Under the pieces are notes generated by a model. It saw nothing but the letters and a program-made list of their open reading frames with translations. It had not been told where the DNA came from and did no database searches. The position numbers and the translations under genes are program-made. 64,000 nt of DNA from a virus. Lineage: Duplodnaviria; Heunggongvirae; Uroviricota; Caudoviricetes. This document shows, piece by piece, positions 7,339 to 44,397 of this stretch (position 1 is its first letter; every line of letters starts with the position of its first letter). The stretch is from the IMG/VR virus record IMGVR_UViG_3300031784_000011, positions 1-64,000 of that record; one strand, 5' to 3'.

Positions 7339-7348
7339 ATTTTTTTTC

Positions 7349-13473: not shown

Positions 13474-13480
13474 AATATTG

Positions 13481-19187: not shown

Positions 19188-19218
19188 CAAATATAGAAAA
19201 GAAAAATTTGATTTCCAA
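19188..19218 (-). promoter_or_regulatory. host sigma-A-type promoter candidate (TTG-N20-TATATTTG)
   Basis: Minus-strand TTG at 19216-19218, a 20-nt spacer, TATATTTG at 19188-19195. Confidence 0.5.
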
Positions 19219-19231
19219 AAAAATCCTAAAA

Positions 19232-26171: not shown

Positions 26172-26785
26172 TACTCAAATGTTTGAATTTTTGCGTCTAC
26201 TTCTTTTAATTCAGACCACGTTCCAAGATACGTAATCGCTCTGACTTTTCTATTATCAATCCACACATATTCTTGGTCATCTTTGATTCTTGGTTTGTCC
26301 ATAACCAATCCGTGATATTTAAAACCTTTTTCTTTTAACCATGTTTCGGTTACTTCACGGTCTTTACTTTCACGAGCGGTAAAAAATGTAATTACATTTC
26401 CCTCATCGTACCATTTGTTGATGATACCCAACGCGTTTGGGTAATGGTTAGCTGTCGGATAAAGATGTGAATCTTCATTTTTAATGTCGTCACAAATTGT
26501 CCCATCAATATCAATCAGAAAAACCCGACTAACCATTTTTTGCGTTATTATGATGTCAGCAATTGTACTATGAAAAATATCATCGTACATTACTTGACAA
26601 TTTGTTTTTAAAACATACTCGACTTCATCACCGTCTTTTACATCATATTTTCCGCTTTTTATTTTTTCTAAAGTTTCTTTTGATGCTTCAAAATTCTTTG
26701 ATGAATCTTCAGAAACAATAAACCATCCTTCGACACTGTTAATAAGTTCGTCAGATTTTTTTTGATATATTAATTTACCTTTCAT
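26171..26785 (-). CDS. HAD-family phosphatase
   Basis: RVFLIDIDGTICDD (motif I). Confidence 0.5.
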   Translation of the reverse strand: MKGKLIYQKKSDELINSVEGWFIVSEDSSKNFEASKETLEKIKSGKYDVKDGDEVEYVLKTNCQVMYDDIFHSTIADIIITQKMVSRVFLIDIDGTICDDIKNEDSHLYPTANHYPNALGIINKWYDEGNVITFFTARESKDREVTETWLKEKGFKYHGLVMDKPRIKDDQEYVWIDNRKVRAITYLGTWSELKEVDAKIQTFE

Positions 26786-30217: not shown

Positions 30218-31072
30218 TTATTCTTCAAACATTACCAGTTGTTTCTTTTGGTTATCATAATCAATCAATCTCTGTTGAGATATCTTTGTGTAAGATTCTG
30301 ATAACTCAAAACCAATATAATTTCTATTCAGCTTCTTAGCTGACAAAGCGGTGGTTCCACTTCCTGAAAAACAATCAACAATCAGGTCATTTTGATAGGA
30401 AAGTATTTTTATTGCTTTCATTGGGATGTCCATGGAGAATGTGGCTTTAGTTAAAGATTTTGTGTCGTTGAAGTATTTCCATTGACCAAAGACTAATTCC
30501 ATGAATTCGTTTTTGTCTTTATCTGAATAAACCCTTTTGTTTTTAAAATTACCTTCCTCGTTTTCGACCTCAATCTGATTATAAGACCATTGAGATATAC
30601 CTTTTTCTTTCTTTTTGTAATCTTTCTTATATGCAAGAATTACACATTCTTTTGGATTGTATATGTATGGTGATGATGGTGACATCCAAGAACCCCAAGC
30701 GGTTGTTTTAGAACGGTGTGGAGAATCCTCCTCTAAGTCCACAACACCAAAGAATCCAAAACCAATCTCTTTCATCATCTGCCAATATTCAGATACTAAG
30801 AAAATTCTCCCACCTCTTTCTCTAACGTTTATTTCATATGGTATATTCAAGGCAATTCTACCATCATCTTTTAATGTACGGTAAACTTCGGATAACCATT
30901 TCTTACACCACTCAAAATACTCATCCATCGGAGCATCGTCTTTGTGCACATCATAACTAATACCGACATTGTACGGTGGACTCGTAACAAAGAGGTCTAC
31001 AGTACCGTCATTTAACTCCTTAAACAGTTCTAAGCAGTCACCCTGATAAATTTTATTCATTTCCATTGACAA
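30218..31072 (-). CDS. beta-class DNA methyltransferase (N4-C or N6-A)
   Basis: LFVTSPPYNVG (motif IV) is N-terminal and DCFSGSGTT (motif I) is C-terminal, which is the beta-class order. The ORF-track start is TTG; the first ATG is 2 codons in. Confidence 0.75.
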   Translation of the reverse strand: MSMEMNKIYQGDCLELFKELNDGTVDLFVTSPPYNVGISYDVHKDDAPMDEYFEWCKKWLSEVYRTLKDDGRIALNIPYEINVRERGGRIFLVSEYWQMMKEIGFGFFGVVDLEEDSPHRSKTTAWGSWMSPSSPYIYNPKECVILAYKKDYKKKEKGISQWSYNQIEVENEEGNFKNKRVYSDKDKNEFMELVFGQWKYFNDTKSLTKATFSMDIPMKAIKILSYQNDLIVDCFSGSGTTALSAKKLNRNYIGFELSESYTKISQQRLIDYDNQKKQLVMFEE

Positions 31073-31153
31073 ATTGTTTTCTATTTATTATTATTACAAA
31101 AGATAACGAATAAAAAACAATAAACCAAAATATTTATAAAAAAACTTAAAATC

Positions 31154-31339
31154 ATGGGATGCGGATGTAAAAAAAGAAACCAACCTGTTAGTAATCAAAC
31201 GGTAAACATTCAACTAACCGAAGGTGGTTCAACACCTCCACAGGAGATTACAATTATGGAACAACAACTTGACCAAATCATAAAAAAGGTTGAGGAGATT
31301 AACAATCAAACTAACGAAGAAAACACAGAAGGACAATAA
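31154..31339 (+). CDS. small hypothetical protein
   Basis: MGCGCKKRNQ...; 61 aa; followed by a strong terminator. Confidence 0.4.
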   Translation: MGCGCKKRNQPVSNQTVNIQLTEGGSTPPQEITIMEQQLDQIIKKVEEINNQTNEENTEGQ

Positions 31340-31342
31340 ATT

Positions 31343-31379
31343 GTATCGGACAGTCTAATAAATTGTCCGATATTTTTTG
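31343..31379 (+). terminator. intrinsic terminator
   Basis: 9-bp stem tatcggaca / tgtccgata (31343-31351, 31364-31372) with an 11-nt loop, then ttttttg. Confidence 0.55.
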
Positions 31380-31415
31380 TCTTTTATAATATATATAAAT
31401 TTATATACTTATATT

Positions 31416-31616
31416 ATGCCTAAACAACAAACAAAACTAACCAGCGTTAACATCATAGATGATGTTTATAAAAGATTTAAGATAAAAAGTGTAGATGGTT
31501 CAATCAATCTACAAAAATTAGTAAACCGAGCTCTTGACCTATATAACACTAGAGAAGATTTTAGAAAACAAATTGATAATCACAACGGTCTTGCACCAAA
31601 CGGTTCCAAATTTTAA
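31416..31616 (+). CDS. ribbon-helix-helix (Arc/CopG-like) DNA-binding protein candidate
   Basis: Start taken at MPKQQ. KLTSVNIIDDVYKRFKIKSVDGSINLQKLVNRALDLY fits a beta-strand, helix, loop, helix RHH pattern. Confidence 0.4.
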   Translation: MPKQQTKLTSVNIIDDVYKRFKIKSVDGSINLQKLVNRALDLYNTREDFRKQIDNHNGLAPNGSKF

Positions 31617-31665
31617 GTTGTGAATTTTATTTCTTATATTATCATCAATATTTTAAAACAAAAAA

Positions 31666-33123
31666 ATGATTACAATAGGTTACAGTACAAGAGAGTCCAA
31701 CCCAAAATTTCAAGAATATTTAAAAAAAACTTGTGGACACCCCAAAGTTCAAGTTATTGAAAAAGTAAACAATGGTGAAAAAAGTCTTTCACAAACTTAC
31801 AATGAAATTATTCAAGAGTCGATTCATGATATTGTCGTACTTTGTCATGATGACATTTACTTTAATACGACTTCGTGGGGTAGAAAATTAGTCAAACATT
31901 TTGAAGAATCTGACTACGGGATTCTCGGTGTTGCCGGTACAACCAATATTCATGAGAGTGGTAGGTGGTGGACAGATAATACCAAAATGGTTGGTATTGT
32001 TAATCATGAAAATGAGGGTAAAAAATGGGAATCGAGATATGCAAATGGAATCCCAAATTCAATTCACGAAGTTTGTTTAGTGGATGGTTTATTCATTGGA
32101 ATCCACAAAAACAGAATAAAACACACTTTTGATGAGTCAGTACCGGGTTTTCATTTTTATGATATGGTATTCTGTACTAGCAATCACTTAAGTGAGGTAA
32201 ACATCGGTGTTATATACAACATAAGAATCACTCACAAATCAATCGGAATGACCAATGATTCTTGGGAAAAGAATAGGGAATTTTACATTGAAAAATTTAA
32301 AGAGAACCTACCAATTAATATAACACCAAAAATTGATTATGACATAACCAAACCAAAACAGTTTAAAGATAAATTTAATTTAATAGTTCAAACATCAAAC
32401 GATAATGAAAATTTAATTCAGTTTTTTGAAAACATAAAAAAATTACCAGTGTTTGATAGTTTACAGATTTCACTCATCTCGACGGATACCAATATAGACA
32501 ATATTAGAGAATTTGAATCTGAAAATATTAAAATTTACGAGGGTTTTTTTGATACATTAAATAAAAACTTATCAGTACTGAAATGGGATGAATCGTTTAT
32601 GGAATCAAAAACAGATTTGTTATTTTTCAGTAATGATACTGTTACCGTATTGAACGACGTTTTCTCAAGTATGTATTCAATATTTAAGAGTGAAAAAAAT
32701 ACTTTTGGGTGCGTCTTTCCTACAGTATTAGAAAACGACCGAACAATTTTTTCAAATGGATTGGATATAGTTCAAAACAACGAACAGTTCAATTTAATTT
32801 TTAAAAACAAATCATCTTTTTTCAATATTTTACACGGACACTTTCCAAACAATTTTGGTAGTATTAGTGACTTTTTTGCCACTACATCTACAAATTTAAA
32901 AATGATTGATTGGTTTGATATTAATTTAGAAACATCAATTTATAACTTAGATTTTGCGTTGAAAACTTTACTTAAAAAACGTAAAACATTCATTGACACA
33001 AACAGTGTGGTAATGATTGATATGGCATCAAAATTTGAAAAGGTTGATGTTGAATTAAAACAAGTCTTAGGTCAGTACATAAACTCACCTGAAATTAGAA
33101 AAAATATCAAACAATTAAGATGA
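31666..33123 (+). CDS. GT-A fold glycosyltransferase (family 2-like) with C-terminal extra domain
   Basis: CHDDIYF (DxD) and GFHFYDMVF are typical of GT2-type nucleotide-sugar transferases. Confidence 0.5.
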   Translation: MITIGYSTRESNPKFQEYLKKTCGHPKVQVIEKVNNGEKSLSQTYNEIIQESIHDIVVLCHDDIYFNTTSWGRKLVKHFEESDYGILGVAGTTNIHESGRWWTDNTKMVGIVNHENEGKKWESRYANGIPNSIHEVCLVDGLFIGIHKNRIKHTFDESVPGFHFYDMVFCTSNHLSEVNIGVIYNIRITHKSIGMTNDSWEKNREFYIEKFKENLPINITPKIDYDITKPKQFKDKFNLIVQTSNDNENLIQFFENIKKLPVFDSLQISLISTDTNIDNIREFESENIKIYEGFFDTLNKNLSVLKWDESFMESKTDLLFFSNDTVTVLNDVFSSMYSIFKSEKNTFGCVFPTVLENDRTIFSNGLDIVQNNEQFNLIFKNKSSFFNILHGHFPNNFGSISDFFATTSTNLKMIDWFDINLETSIYNLDFALKTLLKKRKTFIDTNSVVMIDMASKFEKVDVELKQVLGQYINSPEIRKNIKQLR

Positions 33124-33899
33124 TAAAAATTGTATCGGGATTTACAGAAAAAGGTGGTTCTACCACTTTTTTTATAAACTTAACAAATTTCTTAAATGAA
33201 AATGGTATTGATTGCACATTTTACGGTAATCAGAATTACCATTTAGACAAATGTAAATCAGGGAACATTGAAAAAGATTTAAAGTATGAATCTGATGATA
33301 TTGTAATTACCCATTTTTTACAACTACAGGAAAGACCACCTGTTAAAAAAGTTATTTTGTCTTGTCATGAAAAATGGTGGTTCCCTGTTGGTAAAATTAA
33401 ACAGTATTGGGACCTGTGCGTGTTTTTACATGAAGAGCATCGAAAATATCACTCGGATTACAGGGGTGATTATGTAATAATACCAAACATCAAAGAAAAT
33501 TTAATTATTTCAAATAAAGAGCTGGTAAGAAATATTGCAGGAATTATTGGTACAATTGAAGACAGAAAACAGACCCATGTGTCAATACAAAGAGCATTAA
33601 AAGACAGGTGTGAAAAAATCTATTTGTTCGGTCACATCGGTGACCAAAACTATTTTGACAAATTGGTAAAACCTTTAATGAATCCAAGAGTAATTCATTA
33701 CGGTCACACCACCAATAAACAAGAAATGTACGATATGATTGGTAAGGTATATCACTCATCAAAGGGTGAGGTTGCTTGTTTGGTTAAAGATGAATGTTAT
33801 TTAACCGGTACAGAGTTTTATGGTAATGAAGAGACTATGAATGAAGTTTCTAAATTAAGTAACGAAGAGATATTAACACTTTGGAAAAACATATTTTAA
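33120..33899 (+). CDS. GT-B (group 1-like) glycosyltransferase candidate
   Basis: N-terminal SGFTEKGGSTTF resembles the GT4 G-rich loop. Confidence 0.3.
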   Translation: MIKIVSGFTEKGGSTTFFINLTNFLNENGIDCTFYGNQNYHLDKCKSGNIEKDLKYESDDIVITHFLQLQERPPVKKVILSCHEKWWFPVGKIKQYWDLCVFLHEEHRKYHSDYRGDYVIIPNIKENLIISNKELVRNIAGIIGTIEDRKQTHVSIQRALKDRCEKIYLFGHIGDQNYFDKLVKPLMNPRVIHYGHTTNKQEMYDMIGKVYHSSKGEVACLVKDECYLTGTEFYGNEETMNEVSKLSNEEILTLWKNIF

Positions 33900-33900
33900 A

Positions 33901-34623
33901 ATGAAGATACACGCACATATACTGTCATGGAATGAAGAAAAAATATTACCATTCACATTGGATTACTATAGTACAATCTGTGAAAAAATATTCATATACG
34001 ATAATATGTCAACGGACTCCTCTGATGAGATTTATAAGAGGTACCCAAAAGTTGAGGTTATTAAATGGGATAGTGGTAATGAAATAAATGAAATTAATTA
34101 CGTAAACATTAAATCCGAAGAGTATAAAAAAAGAAGTAGAGGTCAGGGTGTTGATTGGGTTATAGTTTGTGACTGTGATGAGTTTATATACCATGAAAAT
34201 CTTATGGATAAACTTCAAGAGTACAAAGAAATGGGTATAACCGTCCCAAGAATAGACGGTCACGACATGGTTAGTACTGAATTTCCAATATACGACGGTG
34301 AATTCATTACAACAAAAATTAAAACAGGTTCACAAACGTATGAACCAATGTGTAAAAATATAATTTTTCATCCTGATTTAGATATAAAATACGGCATTGG
34401 TGGTCACAGTTTTAATTCTGTTGATGGTAAATTTTCGGATGAGCGGGAAATAAAACTTCTTCACTATAAATTCTTGGGTAAAGACTACGTGAAGAACATT
34501 TACATTTCAAGAGCAAAGAGATTGTCATCGTTCAATAAACAACATAAATTCGGTGAACATTATTTTAATTTACCATTCAATTACATGGACAGCATGTTAA
34601 AAGAAAATTATCAAGTTATATGA
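33901..34623 (+). CDS. GT-A type glycosyltransferase candidate
   Basis: ILSWNEEKILPFTLDYY...VIVCDCDEF (DxD). Confidence 0.4.
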   Translation: MKIHAHILSWNEEKILPFTLDYYSTICEKIFIYDNMSTDSSDEIYKRYPKVEVIKWDSGNEINEINYVNIKSEEYKKRSRGQGVDWVIVCDCDEFIYHENLMDKLQEYKEMGITVPRIDGHDMVSTEFPIYDGEFITTKIKTGSQTYEPMCKNIIFHPDLDIKYGIGGHSFNSVDGKFSDEREIKLLHYKFLGKDYVKNIYISRAKRLSSFNKQHKFGEHYFNLPFNYMDSMLKENYQVI

Positions 34624-35441
34624 GGAAAATACTTATATCGGATTTTACCATTAAAGAAGTACCTCACGGTGGTTCTGAATGGGTGAATCAAGTTTTAATT
34701 GATAGATTTAATCTTGAGTTTGAATATTCAAACCAAGTCAAGTCATTTGATTACAACGCCCTGTATATTATATCAAATATTTCTTTGATGAACCCAAACT
34801 TGGTTAATCAAATACAAAATTTGAACTACGTCATTATTGAAAACGATTATAAAATATGTGCAAGTAGACACCCATGGAGATATACCGACAACATAATTCC
34901 GATTGAGGAAAGAACCAACTATTCTCTTTACCGGAATGCAAAAGCGGTATTTGTTCAAACAACCGACCACATGAACGTTTATCTTAAAAACGATGTTGTT
35001 GCTAATTTTATAAATCTGAATAGTTCGATATGGTCAAATGAGGACTTAGAATTATTGAGGAATTTAAATAAATCCAACAATGTTAAAAACGACAAATATT
35101 CTGTTTACTATACAAATAATTGGATAAAGAACACCCAAGGTAGTCTGAAGTATTGTTCTGAAAATAAATTACCGGTCCATATTCTTAAAGAATCTAAAGA
35201 CAGAGTTGAATTTTTAAGTAATATGGCCAAATGTAAAGGTATTGTGTTTTTCCCGATAGCAAGAGAAACTTTTTGTAGACTGGTTGTTGAGGCAAAATGT
35301 TTAGGTTTGGAAGTAATAACGACACAAAATTATGGTGCAAGTTTAGAAGAATGGTTTAATAGGTTATCAGGTGATGAATTAATTGATTTCTTAGAAACTA
35401 ACACTTTAAAAAATTTAGAAATCATTTCAACTTATATATGA
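34620..35441 (+). CDS. GT-B (group 1) glycosyltransferase candidate
   Basis: N-terminal VPHGGSEWV and C-terminal ARETFCRLVVEAKCLGLEVITTQNYGASLEEW match the GT4 conserved loops. Confidence 0.45.
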   Translation: MRKILISDFTIKEVPHGGSEWVNQVLIDRFNLEFEYSNQVKSFDYNALYIISNISLMNPNLVNQIQNLNYVIIENDYKICASRHPWRYTDNIIPIEERTNYSLYRNAKAVFVQTTDHMNVYLKNDVVANFINLNSSIWSNEDLELLRNLNKSNNVKNDKYSVYYTNNWIKNTQGSLKYCSENKLPVHILKESKDRVEFLSNMAKCKGIVFFPIARETFCRLVVEAKCLGLEVITTQNYGASLEEWFNRLSGDELIDFLETNTLKNLEIISTYI

Positions 35442-36430
35442 TATTATTTTGTTACGGCACAAGACCTGAGTATATTAAAATAAAAAAATTAATAGAAATG
35501 TGTGGGGAAAGTATTCCCCATAAAATTTTATATGTTACCCAACACAAAGATATTGTATTGGGTGATTTTGATTATAAATTATCCATTGATGATACGTGTG
35601 AAAATAGATTGGATAGTATTATGTCATCCGTATTTTTAAATTTTAAAAAAGAATTTTTGGAAGGGGTTACACATATACTTATCCAAGGGGACACCGCAAC
35701 CGCTCTTTCATTATCCCTAATAGGATTACACCATAAAAAAGAAGTGATTCATTTAGAAGCGGGATTACGGACATATGACTACAATCACCCTTACCCCGAA
35801 GAAATGTATCGGCAGTTAATTAGTAGAATTTCAAACTATAATCTTTGCCCAACAGAAAGTAACAAGATGAACTTAGAAAATGAAAAAGTTCAGGGTAAAA
35901 ATTTTGTAGTTGGCAATACCGTATTAGATAATCTTAATAAAGAAAATATTACATACGAAAATAAAGTCTTAATCACTTTACATAGAAGAGAGAATCATGA
36001 GATGATGTCGGAGTGGTTTGATGTTATCAATCGATTAGCAAAGAATAATCCTGAATTAAAATTCATTCTTCCAATACACCCAAACCCAAACGTCATAAAA
36101 CACAAACATATATTGACACATGTTGATGTTATTGAACCATTAACCCATGATAAATTTATTGAGGAATTCAAATCCTGTAAATTACTAATTTCAGATAGTG
36201 GGGGTGTTCAAGAAGAGGCGTCGTTCCTAAATAAGAAAGTTATTGTATGTAGAGAAAAAACTGAGAGACCTGAGTCCTTGGGTAAAACGTCTTTTATATG
36301 TAAAAAACCCATTGACTTAGAAGGTATTTTTTACGATATTATTAACGATTTCCAAACAGAATATGATTGTCCTTTTGGTGATGGTAATTCTTGTGAAAGA
36401 ATCATTGAAATATTTAGAAAAATTGTATGA
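35438..36430 (+). CDS. UDP-N-acetylglucosamine 2-epimerase (non-hydrolysing, WecB-like)
   Basis: HLEAGLRTYDYNHPYPEEMYRQLISRISNYNLCPTE and DSGGVQEEA match the epimerase_2 family. Confidence 0.75.
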   Translation: MILFCYGTRPEYIKIKKLIEMCGESIPHKILYVTQHKDIVLGDFDYKLSIDDTCENRLDSIMSSVFLNFKKEFLEGVTHILIQGDTATALSLSLIGLHHKKEVIHLEAGLRTYDYNHPYPEEMYRQLISRISNYNLCPTESNKMNLENEKVQGKNFVVGNTVLDNLNKENITYENKVLITLHRRENHEMMSEWFDVINRLAKNNPELKFILPIHPNPNVIKHKHILTHVDVIEPLTHDKFIEEFKSCKLLISDSGGVQEEASFLNKKVIVCREKTERPESLGKTSFICKKPIDLEGIFYDIINDFQTEYDCPFGDGNSCERIIEIFRKIV

Positions 36431-37155
36431 GTATAACGGTAATATTAAATGGGTATAAAAGACCACATGTTCTCCAAAAACAATTGGAATCAATTAGAAA
36501 TCAAAGTGTCCAACCCGAATCAATTTTATTTTGGCAAAATTCTGGTTCTCAATTTGATGAGGGACTAACCAAAGATTTAATTCACGCATCTTGTAATAGT
36601 AATTTAGGTGTGTGGGCAAGATTTGCATTTGCTTTAAATGCCAACACAGAATATATTTGTGTTTTTGATGATGACACAATACCGGGTAAACTATGGTTAG
36701 AAAACTGTCTAAACACCATGAAAATTCAAGAAGGTTTATTAGGAACTATCGGTGTAAAATTTCACACAAAAAACTCTTATTGGCCAGCAACAAGAGTCGG
36801 TTGGGACCAACCTAACGAAGAAATTGAAAAGGTCGACATTGTTGGTCACTCGTGGTTCTTTAAAAGAGAATGGTTATCGATATTTTGGAGAGAATTACCT
36901 GAAATCAATCAGAGTAAATTAGTTGGTGAGGATATGCACTTTTCATATACATTACAGAAATACGCAAATATCGGAACTTACGTTCCTCCCCATCCTAAAG
37001 AAAATAGAGAAATGTGGGGTAGTATACCAGAATATGCATGGGAACATGGAACTGATTCCAACGCAATTTCCGTAAATCATTCAAATATGAATTTAATGGG
37101 TGAAGTTTACCGTGGGTATGTAAATAAAGGATTTAAGACAATATTAAATGATTGA
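36427..37155 (+). CDS. family-2 glycosyltransferase
   Basis: ITVILNGYKRPHVLQKQLESIRNQS and FDDDTIPG (DxD). Confidence 0.5.
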   Translation: MSITVILNGYKRPHVLQKQLESIRNQSVQPESILFWQNSGSQFDEGLTKDLIHASCNSNLGVWARFAFALNANTEYICVFDDDTIPGKLWLENCLNTMKIQEGLLGTIGVKFHTKNSYWPATRVGWDQPNEEIEKVDIVGHSWFFKREWLSIFWRELPEINQSKLVGEDMHFSYTLQKYANIGTYVPPHPKENREMWGSIPEYAWEHGTDSNAISVNHSNMNLMGEVYRGYVNKGFKTILND

Positions 37156-37867
37156 AAAGTATATTGAAGATTTTAATTCGTTTTGGGAAAAGATAGATAG
37201 TCGAACTAACTTTTCTTTTGTTAGATATGCCGATGGTGAAGTGATGTTAATGAATAATTCACCGATAGAAAAGAATACACAAGCGTATCAAAACGATAAA
37301 TGGTTTTCGAGTGGGGGACAAACCAAATTAGGTGTGGATTTAAATGAATGTATAGGGTTGAACGACCCAAATTTTTATTTTGCAATATCCTCCAAAACTG
37401 ATAGTATTAGAGACTATAATTTTTTATATGATAGAATACAAAATAAATCAAACATTACATTTGCTAACCTATGGATTAACGCAAATTACAAAGAAAATAT
37501 ATCAAGAATAAGAAATATAAATCGAGATGTTGTTTTAATTTGTAATGAAAATTGTGATTTAAAAAACATACCATTTAGTGTATCAGAATTTGTACCGTTC
37601 CCTAATGATTGTGTAAACTATTGGGAAGAACATAGAGATTCGTTTTTAGAAAAAATATACAATGTTTCTTCAAAATATAAAGATACTTTATTTATCGTAT
37701 GTTGTGGACCAACATCTGCTGTTATCATAAAACATATGTTTACAAATAATAGTAATAACACTTATATTGATTTTGGTTCCGCATTAGATGTATTCATACA
37801 TAATAAAATAACTAGACCATACATGTATGAAGGGTCACAATATCATAATCACATATCAAAATTTTAA
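37148..37867 (+). CDS. GT-D type (DUF1792-like) glycosyltransferase candidate
   Basis: FVRYADGEV, CCGPTSAVII and IDFGSALD echo the GT-D/DUF1792 motifs. Confidence 0.35.
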   Translation: MIEKYIEDFNSFWEKIDSRTNFSFVRYADGEVMLMNNSPIEKNTQAYQNDKWFSSGGQTKLGVDLNECIGLNDPNFYFAISSKTDSIRDYNFLYDRIQNKSNITFANLWINANYKENISRIRNINRDVVLICNENCDLKNIPFSVSEFVPFPNDCVNYWEEHRDSFLEKIYNVSSKYKDTLFIVCCGPTSAVIIKHMFTNNSNNTYIDFGSALDVFIHNKITRPYMYEGSQYHNHISKF

Positions 37868-37873
37868 TTCAGT

Positions 37874-38464
37874 ATGAATAATGATTTTTGTGTCATAGTA
37901 CAAGGACCTTCAGACTACGTTAAAGAATTAAAAAACGCTTGGACTGGTTATGATTTGATTTGGTCAACATGGCAAGGTGAAGAATCAAAATACGATACTA
38001 ATGATGTTGTCTTATTCAACAGTATTCCACACGATAGGGGTGTACAAAATATAGCACTACAAAAAATATCAACTTTGAATGGAATAATGAAAGCCAAAGA
38101 AATAGGTTACAACAGAGTCCTTAAATGGAGAAGTGATTTACTACCATCTAATGCAAATAGATTAGTTTCCACATTTAAAAAAGAGTGTGTAAATTTTTTG
38201 ACTTGGCATAATGAAGGAAAATATTTTGTTGATTATTTTGTGGAGGGTGAAATAGATACGGTGTTTGATATTTGGAATGTATCTACCATACACGATGAGT
38301 ATTCGGAAAAAATAATCACGGAAAATATAATATCACTTAACTATAAAAATATAAACTTTATGGGTGGCGAATTAAGTAATGATAATGAAATTTTTTGGTT
38401 AAAACGAAATATTAATTTGTCCACATATAAAGACGCACCATGTTATAGTATGGTGGTGATTTAA
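37874..38464 (+). CDS. hypothetical protein (possibly WavE-like LPS biosynthesis)
   Basis: N-terminal CVIVQGPSDY. Confidence 0.3.
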   Translation: MNNDFCVIVQGPSDYVKELKNAWTGYDLIWSTWQGEESKYDTNDVVLFNSIPHDRGVQNIALQKISTLNGIMKAKEIGYNRVLKWRSDLLPSNANRLVSTFKKECVNFLTWHNEGKYFVDYFVEGEIDTVFDIWNVSTIHDEYSEKIITENIISLNYKNINFMGGELSNDNEIFWLKRNINLSTYKDAPCYSMVVI

Positions 38465-38475
38465 AAATTATAAAA

Positions 38476-39210
38476 ATGATAGATAATTCAAAATTTATTG
38501 ACGACGCATTTACTCAAGATGAATTAAATAGGGGTGCCTTTACCGATTTGAATGGTAGATGTCCATTATGGACAACAAAAATGATTAATGTTATAAAAGA
38601 TAAAATTGACTTTAATGATGTCAACACAATATTAGATATTGGGTCAAGAGATGGTTGCCAAAGTTTAGAGTTAAATAGATGGTTTCCACATGCTAAAATA
38701 TATGCGTTTGAACCAGTAAAAGAAAACTACGAATTTACAGTTAAGAACGTTGAGAAAATTAATAACATAAAAGTTTACCAATACGCAATAAACAATTACA
38801 ACGGTAAAACTAAATTTTACGAAGTTTATAATGGAAATGTGGGTGCCAGTTCTTTATTACAGACAACAAACCACTGGCGTTCATCTCAGTGGGCCCAAAA
38901 GGAAACTGAGGTTGACTGTATTGTTCTTAGTGATTGGTTAAAAGAAAATGATATTAAAAGTGTTGATTTGATTTGGATGGATGTTCAAGGTGCAGAAAAT
39001 ATCGTATTAGACTCTCTAAAAGAATATTTAAATGATGTAAAAATAATAACCACCGAAGTAGGGTTACAGGAATTATATCGTGGTTCTACAAGTAAATCTG
39101 AACTAGATGAAAAACTAAATAGGTTTATACCAATAGACGAGTCGCCAGAATCTTCAAACACAGAAATGGATGTGGTTTATATCAACAAAAATTTAACACC
39201 TTATGGATAA
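38476..39210 (+). CDS. FkbM-family SAM-dependent methyltransferase
   Basis: ILDIGSRDGCQSLEL...AFEP and the overall FkbM pattern. Confidence 0.55.
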   Translation: MIDNSKFIDDAFTQDELNRGAFTDLNGRCPLWTTKMINVIKDKIDFNDVNTILDIGSRDGCQSLELNRWFPHAKIYAFEPVKENYEFTVKNVEKINNIKVYQYAINNYNGKTKFYEVYNGNVGASSLLQTTNHWRSSQWAQKETEVDCIVLSDWLKENDIKSVDLIWMDVQGAENIVLDSLKEYLNDVKIITTEVGLQELYRGSTSKSELDEKLNRFIPIDESPESSNTEMDVVYINKNLTPYG

Positions 39211-39904
39211 TAAAATTTGTTACGTTACTTATACAAATTCAAAATGTTCAGATATTTTGGATATGTTCTTGTTAGAACAAAAAAAGTACACAAACTTACC
39301 GATGTATTTTATTACAGATGTAATGATACCCGAGCAAATTTGTTTTTTATATGAAAATCAAGAACCTTATTATGAATCATGGTTAAAGTGTTTATCTTCA
39401 ATACCATATGACTATTTTATATACTTACAAGAAGACTTTATTCTTTATAACAATGTCAGTCATGATAAAATTTTTAATTACCTCGATTTTTTACATGATA
39501 ACCAAGAATATTCGTTCATTAGATTGTTAAAATCGGGGTCTGTTAAAGATAAAAAAATTTATGAGACCTTATATGAAATAGAATCCGACAATAAAGATAT
39601 ATTTTCTATGCAACCAACTATTTGGAAAAAAGATGATTACATTAAAATCATGAAAGGTACCAAAAATAATATGTGGTTAGAGAATGAAACATATAGAAAT
39701 TTTATGATAGAAAACAACATCAAAGGTTTATATCATTACGATGGTGAAAACAAAAGGGGGTTGAATCATTTTGATAGTTCTGTTTATCCATATATAGCAA
39801 CGGCTTTAGTTAGAGGTAAATGGAATTTATCTGAATACCCTAATGAACTCTCTCCATTAATAAATGAATATGAAATAAACGTAAATGTTCGGGGGATACA
39901 TTAA
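39203..39904 (+). CDS. hypothetical protein
   Basis: 233-aa ORF inside the sugar island. Confidence 0.4.
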   Translation: MDNKICYVTYTNSKCSDILDMFLLEQKKYTNLPMYFITDVMIPEQICFLYENQEPYYESWLKCLSSIPYDYFIYLQEDFILYNNVSHDKIFNYLDFLHDNQEYSFIRLLKSGSVKDKKIYETLYEIESDNKDIFSMQPTIWKKDDYIKIMKGTKNNMWLENETYRNFMIENNIKGLYHYDGENKRGLNHFDSSVYPYIATALVRGKWNLSEYPNELSPLINEYEINVNVRGIH

Positions 39905-39906
39905 TA

Positions 39907-40581
39907 ATGAAAATTGTTCTATCTTTTTACACCAACAATAAATTTAGTAACACCGTTCAAAAATTAATCGGATATTATAATTCACGTGGTTTCAATGATA
40001 TCCGAGGATTTAAATCTGAAGATGTTAAGAAAGGTATTTTTTATGAAAACCATAAAGAAATATTAGATTGTGAAACGGGTGATGGATTTTGGTTGTGGAA
40101 ACCAAAAATTATTTTAGATATTTTGAATGAATTAGAAGATGGGGATGCATTAATTTATACCGATGCCGGTGATTTAGTTGATGTTGATTATAATACGATT
40201 GCAAATTATTTGAAAGATAATGATTATTATTTTACAAATTGGAATGGAAATCGTTGGCCTCAAAAAATATGTACAAAAAGAGACTGTTTTATCTTGATGG
40301 ATTGTGATGAAGAAAAGTTTCATGAAACACCACAGATGGAAGCAGGATTTATCATCATTAAAAAAACCAAACAAATGATGGAATTTGTTCACGATTATTT
40401 TAAGTATTGTAGTATTAAACAGATAGTTGACAATGAACCAAATCAAATTGGTGAGAATTTTCCAAATTGGCAATTCCATAGAAATGACCAAAGTATATTA
40501 ACTAACTTGGTTGTGAAACATAATTTAAAATTTGATTATTGTCTCGATTATAGAATAAAATACAACGTATATATACCATGA
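39907..40581 (+). CDS. hypothetical protein (possible DxD glycosyltransferase)
   Basis: GFWLWKPKIIL...IYTDAGD. Confidence 0.35.
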   Translation: MKIVLSFYTNNKFSNTVQKLIGYYNSRGFNDIRGFKSEDVKKGIFYENHKEILDCETGDGFWLWKPKIILDILNELEDGDALIYTDAGDLVDVDYNTIANYLKDNDYYFTNWNGNRWPQKICTKRDCFILMDCDEEKFHETPQMEAGFIIIKKTKQMMEFVHDYFKYCSIKQIVDNEPNQIGENFPNWQFHRNDQSILTNLVVKHNLKFDYCLDYRIKYNVYIP

Positions 40582-41339
40582 AATTTATTGCATTAAATTA
40601 TAATTATGACTTAAATAAAATGTCCCAAATCGGTCGGAAATGGGCGTTTGATGTCTACAAAAATAAAGAGTTTATATCTGATTATTCATCAGCATCTTAT
40701 GCTTCATTTATTGATAAGAATAGAAAAAGTATTTTACATCTTTATACTGATGATGTTGAGGGTATGAAAGAAAAAATGAACAAGTATAACATTGACCAAG
40801 ACAGAATTATTTATATTGATTACACGGAACAACTTACCAAATACAATGAAAGTCTTAATTATAGTTTTACAGTTTTAAATGATTTTATTAATTATGCAAA
40901 ATCAGAAACTGAGTACACTGTAAAAATCGATAATGATTTATTTTTTCATTCGGAATTACCACAAATTGATGATAATTCTATTATGGTTTGGAAGTATGAA
41001 AGAATCGTTAGGAATGGTGACCCGAGATGGGGTGAAATAAAAATATGTAAACAGGTTACAAATGATTTAGATTTTAAAATTTATAATTTAGGTATTTTTG
41101 GGTTGCCCGCGGATTACAATATTCACCAAGCAAAAAAAATTATGGAAGATATGATATCGGTAGACATTTCAGATGTGACTGATACAGACTCGAAGATTTA
41201 TCATTGTTGTGAGCAAACGGCAAATAATTGGATTTTTCACAAAGAAAATTATAACGTGATTGAAACGTATAATTATGTTGACCACCTGTTTGATAGAAAA
41301 GGTGATTGTATAGAATTATCAAAATATCTTTTAAAATGA
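40578..41339 (+). CDS. hypothetical protein
   Basis: 253-aa ORF inside the sugar island. Confidence 0.4.
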   Translation: MKFIALNYNYDLNKMSQIGRKWAFDVYKNKEFISDYSSASYASFIDKNRKSILHLYTDDVEGMKEKMNKYNIDQDRIIYIDYTEQLTKYNESLNYSFTVLNDFINYAKSETEYTVKIDNDLFFHSELPQIDDNSIMVWKYERIVRNGDPRWGEIKICKQVTNDLDFKIYNLGIFGLPADYNIHQAKKIMEDMISVDISDVTDTDSKIYHCCEQTANNWIFHKENYNVIETYNYVDHLFDRKGDCIELSKYLLK

Positions 41340-42103
41340 AAACATCAGTAGTATTGACAATTCACAACAAGGAATTCTTAATGAACCAAGTGGTGAGTAA
41401 CTTGGTAAATAATTTATCAGAACTGAATGACCAGATTGTAATAGTTTTTGATGGTTGTACAGATAATAGTGAAGGTATTGTTCGTGACAATTTAAAGAGA
41501 GTTAGTAATAAAAAAATTGATTACCTGTATGCCGACAATGTTTTTGAAACCAAAGCAAATAATATTGGTCTAAAGTCTGTTATAAATGATTATGTGGTCT
41601 TAATCCAAGATGATATGGTTGTCACAGAAAAAGATTTTGATAAGAGGATGTTGGAACCGTTCATAAAATATAGTGATGTGTTCGCTGTAACATCTTTTGT
41701 TGCTCACAATAACATCTATAATGAACAAACAAAACAAATAAATTACATCGATATTGCACATAAAGATAACTCATCAAGAGATATTTTTTATGCTAGAGAA
41801 TATGGTAACAGAGGTCCACTAATGTACAACTATAATGACGTGGTCAAATTAAATTTTTTAGACGAATATTTTTCACCCCAAAATTATGATGATATGGATA
41901 TGTCCATGAGAGCATTCAAAGAACTCGGAAAAGTGTCAGGTTTATATACGATAGATTATATTTCCGAACCTGGATGGGGGACCACTAGACAAAAAAATCA
42001 ATCATTACATAATAATTTAGTTTACGTAAACGCAGCAAAAATACTTGAAAAACACAGGGATTTATTGTATAATAAAGACAAATATAAAGAGGATAGAGAA
42101 TGA
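41336..42103 (+). CDS. family-2 glycosyltransferase
   Basis: Start taken at MKTSVV. VVLTIHNKEF...VIVFDGCTDNSE...LIQDDMV. Confidence 0.5.
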   Translation: MKTSVVLTIHNKEFLMNQVVSNLVNNLSELNDQIVIVFDGCTDNSEGIVRDNLKRVSNKKIDYLYADNVFETKANNIGLKSVINDYVVLIQDDMVVTEKDFDKRMLEPFIKYSDVFAVTSFVAHNNIYNEQTKQINYIDIAHKDNSSRDIFYAREYGNRGPLMYNYNDVVKLNFLDEYFSPQNYDDMDMSMRAFKELGKVSGLYTIDYISEPGWGTTRQKNQSLHNNLVYVNAAKILEKHRDLLYNKDKYKEDRE

Positions 42104-42717
42104 ATAATATAGAGCTAAAGACATTTATGATTAATCATAATGTTAATATCCATGGTGTGATTCACGTTGGTGCACATTTTGGTCAAGAAGATGAAGTTTA
42201 TAAGGAATTGGGTATTTCAAACAGAATATACTTTGAACCTCTATCGTCTAATTTTGAGACCTTAAAAGAAAAAATAGATGATGACGCAATTTTAGTTAAA
42301 CTGGCGTTAGGTAATGAAAAGAGAAAAGTTTCTATGTTTGTAGAATCCTTTAATAAAGGTATGTCATCCTCAATATTAGAACCGAAATTACATTCTGTTC
42401 AATTTCCTCATATCGTTTTTGATTCTGTAGAAGAAGTTGAAATGGATAGATTGGATGATTTAAATTACGATTTTTCAAAATACAACATGATGAATATCGA
42501 TGTTCAAGGTTTTGAATTAGAGGTTCTCAAAGGTTCCGTGAATACATTAATCAACATTGACTACGTTATTGTAGAAATAAACAGAGCCGAATTATATAAA
42601 GGTTGTCCACACTTTGATGAAATAAACAATTGGATGACACATCATGGGTTTACCTGTGTTGAACAATTTTGGTGGGGTAATAATTTTGGTGAGGGATTTT
42701 TTAAAAAAATAAAATGA
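42100..42717 (+). CDS. FkbM-family methyltransferase
   Basis: IHVGAHFGQEDEVY...YFEP. Confidence 0.5.
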   Translation: MNNIELKTFMINHNVNIHGVIHVGAHFGQEDEVYKELGISNRIYFEPLSSNFETLKEKIDDDAILVKLALGNEKRKVSMFVESFNKGMSSSILEPKLHSVQFPHIVFDSVEEVEMDRLDDLNYDFSKYNMMNIDVQGFELEVLKGSVNTLINIDYVIVEINRAELYKGCPHFDEINNWMTHHGFTCVEQFWWGNNFGEGFFKKIK

Positions 42718-43775
42718 AACGAGTATTAGTATTGGGTGGTGGCGGATTTATTGGTGGTCACCTAGCAAAAAGATTAAAAAATGAAGGAAACTACGTAAGA
42801 GTAGTTGATATAAAAAGACACGAATATTTTGATGAGAAAGACTTTTGTGACGAATTCTTAATATATGACCTTACGGACCCAAAAAACGTATCATCAGTAA
42901 TGAGATTAGAAGAATTAAATGGTACGATATTACCGTTTAATTATTACAAACAACCATATTCAACTGAGGTCCCATTTGATGAGGTTTATCAATTAGCTGC
43001 CGATATGGGTGGTGCTGGTTACATCTTCACTGGTGAAAATGACGCGAATGTTATGCACAATTCTGCAATGATAAATTTAAATGTTGTAAATGAATCAGTG
43101 AAGACAAAAGTTAAGAAGATTTTTTATTCATCATCGGCATGTATGTATCCTGAACACAATCAATTAGACCCTAACAACCCAAATTGTGAAGAATCATCAG
43201 CATATCCCGCGAATCCTGATTCAGAATATGGTTGGGAAAAACTTTTTTCGGAAAGGTTGTACTTGGCTTTTCACAGAAATCACGGTTTGGATGTTCGAAT
43301 TGCTAGATTTCATAACATATTTGGTCCATATGGTACGTGGAAAGGTGGTAAAGAAAAAGCACCAGCAGCTATGTGTAGAAAAGTTGCCGAAATGTTAGAC
43401 GGTGGAGAAATTGAAGTTTGGGGTGATGGTCAACAGACTCGTTCATTCTTATATGTGGATGAATGTGTTGAAGCGGTTTTAAGACTAATGAGACAAGACT
43501 CTTTTTTGGGTCCTGTAAACATTGGTTCTGAAGAGAAAGTAACAATTAATGATTTGGCTCAAATGGCTATAGATATTTCAGGTAAAGAAATTTATATCAG
43601 AAATATTGGTGGGGAAGAATTTAAACAGAAGTATGGATATAAATGTCCTGTTGGTGTGAGGGGAAGAAATTCAGACAATAAATTATACCACGAAAAAATA
43701 GGTTGGGTTGTTAGTGAACCTCTGTTCTATGGAATGGAAAAAACCTATAAATGGATTAATAGTTTAGTTAAATAA
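42714..43775 (+). CDS. GDP-mannose 3,5-epimerase-like NAD-dependent epimerase/dehydratase
   Basis: Rossmann GGGGFIGGHL. SEYGWEKLFSE (YxxxK). RFHNIFGPYGTWKGGKEKAPAAMCRK closely matches the plant/bacterial GME signature. Confidence 0.7.
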   Translation: MKRVLVLGGGGFIGGHLAKRLKNEGNYVRVVDIKRHEYFDEKDFCDEFLIYDLTDPKNVSSVMRLEELNGTILPFNYYKQPYSTEVPFDEVYQLAADMGGAGYIFTGENDANVMHNSAMINLNVVNESVKTKVKKIFYSSSACMYPEHNQLDPNNPNCEESSAYPANPDSEYGWEKLFSERLYLAFHRNHGLDVRIARFHNIFGPYGTWKGGKEKAPAAMCRKVAEMLDGGEIEVWGDGQQTRSFLYVDECVEAVLRLMRQDSFLGPVNIGSEEKVTINDLAQMAIDISGKEIYIRNIGGEEFKQKYGYKCPVGVRGRNSDNKLYHEKIGWVVSEPLFYGMEKTYKWINSLVK

Positions 43776-43808
43776 AAAAGGGGGTTATTGACCCCCTTCT
43801 TTTTTTTC
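43771..43808. terminator. bidirectional intrinsic terminator
   Basis: Stem aagggggt / acccccctt (43778-43785, 43791-43798), loop tattg, A-run upstream, 9-nt T-run downstream. It overlaps the stop codon of the convergent gene 43785..44078. Confidence 0.65.
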
Positions 43809-44078
43809 AATGTATTTTAATATAATTGCTAACGCCTCGTCGTCCCCATTAAAATCTTTTTCGGGACAAAAAAAGGGTCCTTTACCAGTGTCGTCTTTTT
43901 TAATGTAAAAGGCGGGTAAATATTCATTACCCGTTTGTTCAATTACTTTATTCCAAATCTCTTTATTCTTACCAACTTCAACTTCTCGGTAAGGTAATGA
44001 TTCTTTTTGGAGTCTCTCTTTTAATCTTTTACAACCTCCACAACCCTCAAGTGTAAATAGAAGTAATTCATTCGCCAT
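43785..44078 (-). CDS. glutaredoxin/NrdH-like redoxin
   Basis: LFTLEGCGGCKRLKE (CxxC), about 97 aa. Confidence 0.5.
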   Translation of the reverse strand: MANELLLFTLEGCGGCKRLKERLQKESLPYREVEVGKNKEIWNKVIEQTGNEYLPAFYIKKDDTGKGPFFCPEKDFNGDDEALAIILKYIEKKEGGQ

Positions 44079-44079
44079 A

Positions 44080-44385
44080 TTATAAAGTGTTTAATATTTC
44101 TTTGTAAAAAGAATCGGGTCTAACACCTGATGTTCTTGATACTTCGTTATTACCATTAAATATCATTACCGTTGGTACTGAACGTACCCCATATTCTTGA
44201 GAACCTGACATTTCAGAATCAACATTAACCTTGACGAATTTAACATCAGGGTATTCGTGTTGTAGTAAATCTAATTTTGGTAATAACATTTTACATGGTC
44301 CACACCATTCAGCGTAAAAGTCGGCAAGAACTTTCTCACCGTTTTGTTTCATTTCATTTAGTTTTTCAACTGTTACTAATTCCAT
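44080..44385 (-). CDS. thioredoxin
   Basis: FYAEWCGPCKML, 101 aa. Confidence 0.8.
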   Translation of the reverse strand: MELVTVEKLNEMKQNGEKVLADFYAEWCGPCKMLLPKLDLLQHEYPDVKFVKVNVDSEMSGSQEYGVRSVPTVMIFNGNNEVSRTSGVRPDSFYKEILNTL

Positions 44386-44397
44386 TTTTCTTTAATT

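Follow-up and report, generated by a model that had tools for sequence, protein, structure and literature searches.

A compact glycan-biosynthesis operon without membrane components in an uncultured tailed phage, and its possible protein acceptor

Glycan-synthesis islands make up 5-10% of many abundant aquatic phage genomes, and for about 20 years their role has been guessed to be the modification of the host O-chain. The closest described examples come from cyanomyoviruses and pelagimyophages. Among the former, S-SCSM2R is reported to carry 13 glycosyltransferases (GTs) and 22 cell-wall genes (PMC12801897), S-SCSM1 has a GDP-mannose 3,5-epimerase annotated among fucosyltransferases and GTs (PMC9602691), and the S-SSM7 cluster of about 12 kb combines three epimerases, a methyltransferase, a UDP-glucose dehydrogenase and an NAD synthetase with at least four GTs. 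Pelagimyophages contain GT-rich hypervariable regions, for which the authors proposed an O-chain modification that avoids co-infection (PMC7029224). Here we describe an island of this kind in an uncultured tailed phage (Caudoviricetes), IMG/VR record IMGVR_UViG_3300031784_000011. The stretch analysed, positions 1 to 64,000 of that record and hereafter called the window, represents 64 kb of a phage genome of at least about 170 kb. The island is an operon of predicted glycan-synthesis enzymes, and we consider, at a probability of roughly 0.4, that the acceptor of its glycan is a protein, most likely a virion protein, which we place only slightly ahead of a remodelling of the host surface.

An earlier note on this DNA, made from its letters without database searches, had called such a pathway exceptional for a bacteriophage. 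This was overstated: the epimerase that closes the island has homologs of 53-58% identity in 37 records of a collection of 50,697 deposited phage records, mostly isolated T4-like cyanomyoviruses (S-SSM7, S-SCSM2R, S-SCSM1, P-TIM68), and clusters are present in S-SSM7, S-SCSM1, S-SCSM2R and pelagimyophages. At the nucleotide level, a megablast search of the island against the same collection gave no match.

The block consists of 17 plus-strand open reading frames (ORFs; g01 to g17), all in the same orientation across 31154-43775, with minus-strand genes on both sides. The ORF listing contained no second plus-strand block longer than about 1 kb in the 64-kb window, and GC skew and AT skew change sign exactly over the block, bearing out the earlier claim that it is the only long plus-strand block there. 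The operon proper occupies 31416-43775 (+) inside minus-strand genes of replication and nucleotide metabolism. Neighbouring genes overlap by 4-8 nt at 10 of the 14 junctions between 31666 and 43775, which points to translational coupling of the operon. The note had described about 15 co-oriented, mostly overlapping genes between convergent terminators; the block and both hairpins were confirmed, but the left hairpin is not convergent.

The strand switch, a slightly lower GC content than in the flanks (30.2 vs 32.7%) and a codon usage that is statistically separable from theirs (the difference was reached in 0 of 500 permutations) would suit a piece of a host locus for capsule or O-antigen synthesis, mis-assembled into the phage contig or very recently captured by it. 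We regard this as barely credible. An ENA contig of 82.6 kb (L169) aligned to 30578-45268 of the window in a single block at 97.9% identity and carries the same 17 genes in the same order between the same flanks, both junctions included, which excludes the mis-assembled capsule fragment that the note had named as a possible error. The left junction was confirmed by an IMG/VR contig spanning the left flank and g01-g03 (L001) and is the same in four JGI and Logan contigs (L165-L168), while a contig of 170,860 bp (L003) spanning g13-g17 and 10 kb of right flank confirmed the right junction. ENA, JGI and Logan assemblies thus independently place the island between the same phage genes. The comparison of G+C and codon usage that the note had suggested showed island and flanks to be close yet distinguishable, with a third-position GC content of 25 vs 28% and a correlation of relative synonymous codon usage of r = 0.98. 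Also speaking against a host fragment, at least 34 further viral loci share the architecture running from g03 to the epimerase, g03 lacks a close bacterial homolog and the island lacks membrane genes. On the L169 alignment, the other assemblies and the composition we rejected the mis-assembly or host-fragment reading; the agreement of independent assemblies and the composition near that of the flanks identify the block as a long-resident part of the phage lineage.

The 15 enzymes of the island are encoded by g03-g17, all on the plus strand and within 12.1 kb. Four of them are GTs of the GT-A fold: the tandem GT-A enzyme g03 (31666-33123, 485 amino acids (aa); Pfam PF13712, Glyco_tranf_2_5, E-value 2.9e-24) and the GT2-type enzymes g05 (33901-34623, 240 aa; Pfam Glyco_tranf_2_4, E 3.2e-15), g08 (36427-37155, 242 aa; Pfam Glycos_transf_2, E 1e-6, 29.2 bits vs a cutoff of 23.3) and g15 (41336-42103, 255 aa from the ATG at 41336; Pfam Glycos_transf_2, E 1.9e-12). 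Among ten island proteins scanned against PHROG, two gave borderline matches (E ~0.01) and only g15 a firm one, to GtrB-like proteins (E 2e-5), confined to the N-terminal part, the soluble GT2 domain. The compact protein g04 (33120-33899, 259 aa) matched nothing in Pfam or NCBIfam, while a profile of 30 sequences matched BshA-type GT4 enzymes at about 1e-3, with E217 and E225 of an EX7E motif invariant. Its AlphaFold2 (AF2) model (pLDDT 96) found BshA, HepE, TarM, WaaG and PimA as best Foldseek matches (TMq ~0.7), and this comparison of the predicted structure confirms g04 as a GT-B, GT4-like glycosyltransferase.

Two further GTs were assigned with less certainty. For g06 (34620-35441, 273 aa), a sub-threshold match to Pfam Glycos_transf_1 (E 0.0025, residues 196-240) coincides with invariant E216-x7-E224 and HGGSE motifs, and a search of its profile against PDB sequences found nothing; we tentatively class it as GT-B/GT4-like. 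The assignment of g09 (37148-37867, 239 aa) as a probable GT-D-fold (DUF1792-like) glycosyltransferase rests on matches below the curated cutoffs, to Pfam GT-D-like (E 1.2e-4 over nearly the full length, 21.9 bits vs 27) and NCBIfam GT-D_rel (E 1.4e-4, 21.6 bits vs 75), on a match of its profile to the founding GT-D structure 4pfx (E 0.0068, residues 21-68), and on R26, D29, G30 and E31, which are invariant in eight homologs and of which D29 and E31 form a DxE motif. The inventory thus comprises at least five firm GTs (g03, g04, g05, g08, g15), two probable or tentative ones (g06, g09) and three candidates by motif, covering the GT-A, GT-B and GT-D folds. Of the GTs that the note had called, numbering at least five, the four GT-A/GT2 enzymes stand and g04 is supported by structure, whereas g09 is probable and g06 tentative on its EX7E motif and sub-threshold Pfam match, making seven that are supported or plausible.

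The sugar-nucleotide enzymes and methyltransferases proved to be those that the note had named. The WecB-type, non-hydrolysing UDP-GlcNAc 2-epimerase called at 35438 is g07 (35438-36430, 330 aa), with Pfam Epimerase_2 at E 4e-60 and matches to PDB 6vlb (1.3e-43) and other WecB structures; it is predicted to produce UDP-N-acetylmannosamine (UDP-ManNAc). The short-chain dehydrogenase/reductase called as GDP-mannose-3,5-epimerase-like at 42714 is g17 (42714-43775, 353 aa), the conserved 3' end of the island, which matches the Arabidopsis enzyme GME (PDB 2c59) at E 1.3e-87. The catalytic Cys, Tyr, Lys and Lys positions are conserved between the two, with the motifs SSAC, YGxEK and GGxEK aligning; we presume that these residues have the roles known from Arabidopsis GME. 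It is predicted to produce GDP-L-galactose and/or GDP-L-gulose, so that both donors proposed in the note appear to be the right reading of the two epimerases. The methyltransferases called at 38476 and 42100 are g11 (38476-39210, 244 aa; Pfam Methyltransf_21, E 1e-19) and g16 (42100-42717, 205 aa; the same family, E 1.3e-16), FkbM-family S-adenosylmethionine-dependent enzymes, the first predicted to O-methylate sugars; they are the only related pair within the island. Overall, the profile search per ORF that the note had recommended placed the called ORFs in the families named, with g06 and g09 below threshold.

Four proteins could not be assigned to a family. Pfam searches of g10, g12, g13, g14 and the C-terminal domain of g03 up to an E-value of 10 returned noise only, and profile searches of the four proteins against PDB sequences gave nothing usable. 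The protein g10 (37874-38464, 196 aa) had no family match in Pfam, NCBIfam, PHROG or PDB-profile searches and has homologs in three related loci (L020, L056, L165). The protein g12 (39203-39904, 233 aa), matched neither in the libraries nor by PDB profile, could be GT-A-like, to judge from an invariant QEDF motif, and the invariant WLWKP, Y-x-D-x-G and HR-DQS motifs of g13 (39907-40581, 224 aa; no informative match) hint at a nucleotide-sugar transferase. The metagenome-only family of g14 (40578-41339, 253 aa) shares an invariant, DxD-like KIDND motif; none of its 154 homologs has a Pfam domain, no PDB-profile match was found, and hhalign of its profile against g03 detected nothing. Read from the alignments, DxD-like motifs are thus present in three of the four proteins without a family (g12, g13 and g14).

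None of the 17 products has a transmembrane segment; over stretches of 19 residues, hydropathy peaks at 1.51. All 15 enzymes are acidic (isoelectric point below 6.7), and none exceeds 7.5, compared with 18 of 45 flanking proteins. Pfam and NCBIfam scans of the island, in which four proteins have no family, revealed no initiating phosphoglycosyl transferase, flippase, polymerase, ligase or ABC exporter, and no Wzx, Wzy, Wzz, WaaL, Wzm/Wzt, GtrA- or GtrC-type membrane protein. With no membrane, initiating or export gene, the set is complete for a soluble acceptor and incomplete for a lipid-linked one; the uniform acidity would likewise be unlike typical membrane-peripheral or DNA-binding enzymes.

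The first enzyme, g03, is the signature of the island. Its AF2 model (pLDDT 91) shows two GT-A domains in tandem, of which the N-terminal one carries an invariant HDD motif. The C-terminal domain is GT-A-like and lacks a conserved DxD or other acidic motif, and is therefore probably a non-catalytic accessory or acceptor-binding domain. Foldseek matched the model to the two-GT-A-domain enzymes K4CP, PmHS2, LH3, COLGALT1 and LARGE1, which include both polysaccharide polymerases and protein GTs, at a whole-chain TM score of only ~0.3. The g03 family comprises 2729 metagenomic proteins of about 486 aa, none with a meaningful functional name. A tblastn search of g03 against the 50,697 phage records gave no match; among 185,579 reference genomes, full-length relatives reach at most 41% identity and all lie on contigs of metagenome-assembled genomes (MAGs), while cultured bacteria match the N-terminal domain only, at 25-32%. 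From these searches, g03 looks virus-specific.

Natural fusions join g03 to g04 (P0243, P0247, P0248, P0252, P0253) and g04 to g05 (P0244), which suggests joint action of the first three transferases. One of the fusions, P0252, has the GT-B enzyme g04 in place of the degenerate second g03 domain. Among bacterial relatives, five Nitrospirota MAG contigs (L098:3928-17010, L099, L093, L089, L087) share a conserved cluster of a GT2+GT9 fusion, a g03 homolog, a GT9 with tetratricopeptide repeats (TPR-GT9) and an OGT-like TPR-GT41, which in L098 starts some 5 kb downstream of a fliK-like gene. We take the TPR-GT9/TPR-GT41 arrangement to be typical of protein, especially flagellin, glycosylation, and by this analogy the Nitrospirota cluster looks like a flagellar or protein glycosylation island.

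In four related contigs (L165-L168), an ORF of 116-118 aa derived from a T4-type major capsid protein overlaps the start of g03 (L165:9654-10004 and L168:256-612; Pfam Gp23, E 3e-20, profile positions 133-196). Its two versions are about 45% identical and keep both their length and a C-terminal F-K-x-F-K-L-L-x-G tail. In the protein database, its true small homologs are three close relatives only. More distant matches proved to be real capsid genes frameshifted in low-coverage long-read assemblies and were rejected, which leaves the lead a narrow one.

Homologs of the terminal epimerase occur in more than 596 viral contigs of IMG/VR, the 80 kept being 67-95% identical. A distance of 3.8-12.1 kb separates g03 from the epimerase in 34 loci, where g03 is the upstream gene, both share a strand and a median of nine genes intervene. 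The 314 proteins of these 34 islands fall into 69 families, of which 32 are limited to one locus each. The near-universal ones are only g03, the epimerase and the FkbM methyltransferases (in 24 of the 34), and the island of the window is the largest among those compared. Close relatives part from it internally. In L168, g03 is 94% identical at the protein level and the DNA 88% identical over 31660-37890, after which different genes follow, and L165 is 80% identical over 31666-37149 and then rearranged, with two extra genes. Both of the related IMG/VR contigs break off within the island, at 32368 and 39809 of the window, and we infer that these breaks reflect population-level variation in short-read assembly. 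A conserved left half (g03 to g08 or g09) and the terminal epimerase therefore bracket a right half that is swapped between close relatives.

The commonest island type encodes a UDP-glucose/GDP-mannose dehydrogenase, GT2, FkbM, GT11, a TylF-type methyltransferase, GT10, NAD synthase and GT25. GT10 and GT11 are fucosyltransferase families, and L-galactose is the 6-hydroxy analogue of L-fucose; given this resemblance, pairing the epimerase with GT10 and GT11 would make biochemical sense.

The ends of the operon are well delimited. Upstream lies g01 (31154-31339, +), a separate small transcription unit encoding a 61-aa protein that starts with MGCGCKK and has no Pfam match; it is 93% conserved in L001 and present in L165 and L169. 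It ends at an intrinsic-terminator-like hairpin of 12 pairs followed by a T-run (31343-31373, +), kept in the same three contigs, which is the true left edge of the operon. A promoter scan found a sigma-70-like site, TTGTCC-N16-TATAAT, at 31363-31390 (+; 10 of 12 matches), followed at 31392-31407 (+) by a perfect 16-bp palindrome, TATATAAATTTATATA, a candidate operator that ends 8 nt before the g02 start codon. Such palindromes are not significant alone in this AT-rich DNA (7 in the window vs 2.4 expected). Five relatives, 2-20% divergent elsewhere, show no variation across columns 31391-31418 other than one L001 substitution at 31396, inside the palindrome. The gene g02 (31416-31616, +) encodes a ribbon-helix-helix (RHH)-like protein of 66 aa, with a weak match to Pfam RHH_10 (E 0.0066, below cutoff). 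In 13 other viral loci, a homolog of 35-50% identity precedes the epimerase by 4-7 kb in the same orientation, and the 66-aa gene is also called in L165, L168 and L169. We consider g02 probably a transcriptional (auto)regulator of the island, for which the palindrome may serve as operator. T4-type late promoters (TATAAATA) were not enriched in the window (12 vs 11.3 expected), with no copy on the operon strand upstream of the operon. At the right end, a 9-pair stem with five GC pairs (43778-43798) is preceded by an A-run, followed by a T-run and located between the convergent epimerase (+) and glutaredoxin (-) genes, which marks it as a bidirectional intrinsic terminator.

Taken with the enzyme set, these features suggest the following scheme. 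A methylated hetero-oligosaccharide or polysaccharide would be assembled wholly in the cytoplasm of the infected cell, under control of the operon by g02 through the palindrome. WecB would convert host UDP-GlcNAc to UDP-ManNAc, and g03 would carry out the conserved first, acceptor-specific step, after which the downstream GTs would lengthen the glycan and the methyltransferases cap or decorate its sugars. The acceptor would be a soluble protein, most likely a structural one of the virion (capsid, tail or fibre), and this choice is the weak step of the scheme. Glycan types would then differ from one phage lineage to the next, in parallel with the virion glycosylation of mycobacteriophages and the capsid or fibril glycosylation of chloroviruses and mimiviruses. 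In addition to the completeness of the set for a soluble acceptor, the only solved relative of the GT-D protein (4pfx; DUF1792/dGT1) acts in protein O-glycan extension, the g03 layout of one catalytic and one degenerate GT-A domain is that of the protein glycosyltransferases LH3 and COLGALT1, and the strain-level swapping of cassettes fits an exposed, selected glycan. For the whole family of islands we propose, more tentatively, that they could be widespread in uncultured aquatic phages and coat virions with a strain-specific, O-methylated heteroglycan that would contain ManNAc and L-galactose or L-gulose, with g03 as a virus-specific protein glycosyltransferase initiating it and the right half making the glycotypes, comparable to the bacterial serotypes made by O-antigen loci; the capsid-fragment ORF at the start of g03 in some relatives would then be a clue to the g03 substrate.

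A number of points weigh against a protein acceptor. The island sits among replication and nucleotide-metabolism genes, and no structural gene was recognised in the window. The window itself (31617-31665), L001 and L169 lack the capsid-fragment ORF. In 31 bacterial genomes, a census of 125 genes adjacent to g03-like ones showed generic GT clusters, three of them with ABC-transporter ATPases, and no flagellin family among the top families, which confines the flagellar association to one lineage. The g06 and g09 calls lie below curated thresholds, and each of the pointers to a protein acceptor (the distance of g03, the Nitrospirota context, g09 and the capsid fragment) is weak. GT2, GT4 and ManNAc are classic for the synthesis of lipopolysaccharide (LPS), capsule and teichoic acid, and GTs that use undecaprenyl-linked acceptors likewise have no transmembrane segments. 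With its autonomous promoter and RHH gene, the layout is more like that of a moron than of a late structural operon. Finally, homologous clusters of cyanophages and pelagimyophages have been published as host-surface modification, as their authors' proposal (PMC7029224, PMC9602691, PMC12801897).

A remodelling of the host surface is an alternative that we rate only slightly below a protein acceptor. The GTs would build on undecaprenyl-phosphate primed by a host enzyme of the WecA/WbaP type, and a host flippase and polymerase, or an ABC exporter and ligase, would display the product as O-chain or capsule; the effect could be a block to superinfection, an avoidance of progeny adsorption to infected cells and debris, or an altered recognition by grazers. 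By analogy with ABC-transporter-dependent O-antigen pathways, the methyltransferases could supply a chain-terminating methyl cap. GT2, GT4, WecB/ManNAc and a GDP-hexose epimerase are typical of LPS, capsule and enterobacterial common antigen loci, the hypervariability resembles that of O-antigen loci, and the promoter and regulator of its own would allow expression apart from the late programme. The GT10, GT11, GT25, UDP-glucose dehydrogenase and TylF-type methyltransferase of the commoner islands match LPS and cell-wall clusters of cyanophages, and the likely host belongs to the Bacteroidota, in which capsule type is generally known to gate phage infection. This is also the published interpretation of the cyanomyophage and pelagimyophage clusters (PMC7029224). 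However, the island encodes no membrane step, its proteins have neither a membrane segment nor a basic surface, and g03 is without a close cellular homolog. Flippases and polymerases are usually specific for their repeat unit, and the product of 8-11 transferases would have to suit foreign machinery across many hosts. To our knowledge, every experimentally proven phage serotype-conversion system relies on membrane proteins (GtrA/B/C, Wzy-like polymerases, Oac) and comes from temperate phages, which likewise counts against this alternative.

The note had also considered a sugar hypermodification of DNA, in which the GTs would add an oligosaccharide to a hydroxylated pyrimidine and so defeat restriction, as precedented by glucosyl-hydroxymethylcytosine in T4 and arabinosyl-5-hydroxycytosine (arabinosyl-5hoC) in RB69 and DLP3. 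The location lends itself to this idea: the island lies in a nucleotide-metabolism region, about 5.5 kb from a gene for a 441-aa ThyA and adjoining thioredoxin and glutaredoxin genes, and two DNA methyltransferase genes bracket it at 30218-31072 (-) and 45760-46650 (-). Phage DNA can carry di- and trisaccharides made by clusters with sugar-nucleotide genes (bioRxiv 10.1101/2023.12.21.572611; PMC13326640), and for phage YerA41 a modification of ~1 kDa on thymidine has been reported (PMC9023294). In thymidylate synthase homologs, D169N is diagnostic of 5-hydroxy-dCMP synthases, N177D of dCMP specificity and changes at L143 of a hydroxymethyl product (PMC13326640). The ThyA of the window reads VLPPCH ... 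QRSVDTFLGLPFNIASY, with L143, D169 and N177 canonical, and scores 305 bits on TIGR03284, while the flanking methyltransferases are of the N6/N4 type (PF01555, on the L165/L169 ortholog) and the D12/Dam type, not C5-cytosine enzymes; on these grounds the option is disfavoured. Moreover, no TET/JBP protein, dioxygenase, dCTPase or dNMP kinase was found among the ~40 ORFs scanned in the window, which covers 64 kb of the genome, and 8-11 GTs with two O-methyltransferases go far beyond any known DNA glycan; the island enzymes are also all acidic. We therefore consider DNA a very improbable acceptor. As a separate observation, ThyA (24846-26171, -) exceeds the usual 264-320 aa through large insertions, with C146 canonical like the three residues above.

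It is somewhat less improbable, though still unlikely, that the enzymes make another soluble product, be it a free cytoplasmic or secreted glycan, a glycosylated small molecule, or glycosylated host proteins such as flagellin, pilin or a receptor. They are soluble, acidic and unaccompanied by a carrier or exporter, FkbM- and TylF-type methyltransferases and GT-B enzymes occur in natural-product pathways, and the context of g03 homologs in Nitrospirota suggests flagellar glycosylation. Set against this, the island contains no aglycone-forming, polyketide, nonribosomal peptide synthetase or tailoring genes, a lytic phage would have no obvious gain, and no precedent is known in phages. On balance, we marginally favour attachment to a protein, most likely of the virion.

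The flanks encode, by PHROG matches throughout, a UvrD-like helicase, ThyA, the two DNA methyltransferases, a sigma-70-family sigma factor, SbcC/SbcD-like nucleases, an exonuclease and a primase; thioredoxin, glutaredoxin and AAA ATPase genes are also present. The best matches of the helicase are to Bacteroides, Chryseobacterium and Flavobacterium phages (33-36% identity), while SbcC matches only at 23-25%. By these comparisons no cultured phage is close to that of the window, and its helicase and SbcC do not appear T4-like. No lysogeny genes were seen in the window. The sigma factor (54129-54941, -; PHROG 351, E 2e-52) implies a transcription programme of the phage's own. Several minus-strand operons, though not the island, are preceded by TTTG-N17-21-TAnnTTTG, which we take to resemble the Bacteroidota promoter consensus (-33/-7 type). 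A motif of the form TTTGG(A/T)A...-N-TATATTTG lies just upstream of three minus-strand operons, at 7308-7339, 13443-13474 and 19188-19219 (-, intergenic); its overall count is near chance (7 observed vs 5.2 expected), and the positions alone are suggestive. Together, the motif positions and the relatives of the helicase suggest that the host phylum is likely Bacteroidota. A perfect TTTG-N20-TATATTTG match also occurs inside g08 at 36628-36659 (+), about 490 nt upstream of g09 and near the point at which relatives begin to diverge; this could be a chance occurrence or an internal promoter.

Other genes around the island were less expected. A glutamine-synthetase-like protein (28109-29233), a class I/II aminotransferase (4269-5378) and a HAD/PNKP-like phosphatase (26171-26785) are encoded on the minus strand, and the orthologous region of L165 has a 4HBT thioesterase and a DUF2452 protein; these odd metabolic genes may serve some other modification pathway. 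A 611-aa PcfJ-like domain protein (20659-22494, -) and a 442-aa peptidoglycan-binding-domain protein with an endolysin-like PHROG match (15041-16369, -) lie among the replication genes. In L001, an insertion of ~600 bp (~8826-9444) between the DNA methyltransferase gene and g01 encodes, as judged by eye, a GIY-YIG-like homing endonuclease and seems to duplicate the first few g01 codons (MGCG...).

With 15 enzymes in one operon, a regulator of its own, no membrane step and a recurrent family with conserved ends, the locus is among the largest and tidiest examples of such islands. The single operon, its regulator and the conserved ends make it a practical template for heterologous reconstitution, which renders the question of the acceptor experimentally tractable. 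Should the product be found on virions, planktonic tailed phages would wear variable glycan coats, with a bearing on adsorption, decay, grazing and immune-like recognition; should it be found on the cell, this would be the first soluble-enzyme route to serotype conversion in a lytic phage. Either way, the island offers several glycosyltransferase families that are assigned in neither Pfam nor PHROG, together with predicted GDP-L-galactose/gulose chemistry from a phage.

Compared with known systems, the island is most like the clusters of cyanomyoviruses (P-SSM2, S-SSM7, S-SCSM1, S-SCSM2R) and pelagimyophages, which are likewise found in large lytic aquatic phages and assemble nucleotide-sugar enzymes, several GTs and methyltransferases in about 10 kb. 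They share a homologous epimerase (53-58% identity) and hypervariability between strains (PMC7029224). The commoner related islands and the cyanophage clusters additionally have UDP-glucose dehydrogenase, NAD synthase, GT2, GT10, GT11 and GT25 in common. In contrast, no island protein other than the epimerase matches the S-SSM7 cluster, and unlike the cyanophage clusters the genes here form one tight operon in the replication region, which g03 and the epimerase bracket and which has an RHH regulator, a promoter-like site and a terminator of its own.

The virion glycosylation cassettes of mycobacteriophages resemble the island in encoding soluble phage GTs, some with methyltransferases, that act in the cytoplasm without export machinery and lie outside the structural module; Freeman et al. 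(2023; cited in PMC12619734 and PMC12801897) reportedly demonstrated the glycan on the C-termini of capsid and tail-tube proteins. Those cassettes differ in having 2-4 genes, no sugar-nucleotide epimerases and actinobacterial hosts. In the PHROG scan of ten island proteins, no family matched those cassettes, a result that is not a direct comparison of homology. The capsid and fibril glycosylation machinery of chloroviruses and Megavirinae has been reviewed (PMC9614988, PMC10117803). Its clusters, which reach about 12 genes, bring together sugar-nucleotide synthesis, several GTs and sugar methylation, do not depend on host secretory glycosylation and are clade-specific in content. Compared by description only, these eukaryotic giant viruses differ from the phage in their sugars (rhamnose, viosamine, bacillosamine).

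Phage DNA hypermodification clusters (T4 alpha/beta-GT, RB69/DLP3 arabinosyl-5hoC, methyltransferase/5mYOX/GT) are similar in placing GTs and sugar-nucleotide genes near nucleotide metabolism and in being variable, but the DNA glycans known consist of 1-3 sugars added by 1-3 GTs, and the island has no precursor-forming enzyme in the window. Bacterial O-antigen and capsule loci draw on the same superfamilies, with conserved end genes bracketing swappable GTs, methyltransferases and sugar-nucleotide enzymes. Unlike these loci and the gtrABC, Oac and Wzy-like converters, the island has no membrane, initiating or export component and does not lie in a cellular genome. In the literature searched, the RHH-regulated operon bracketed by g03 and the epimerase, the families of g03, g04 and g14, and the structure of conserved core and variable module are apparently new. 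The kind of island is already known, and the locus described here is an unusually complete and well-delimited form of it.

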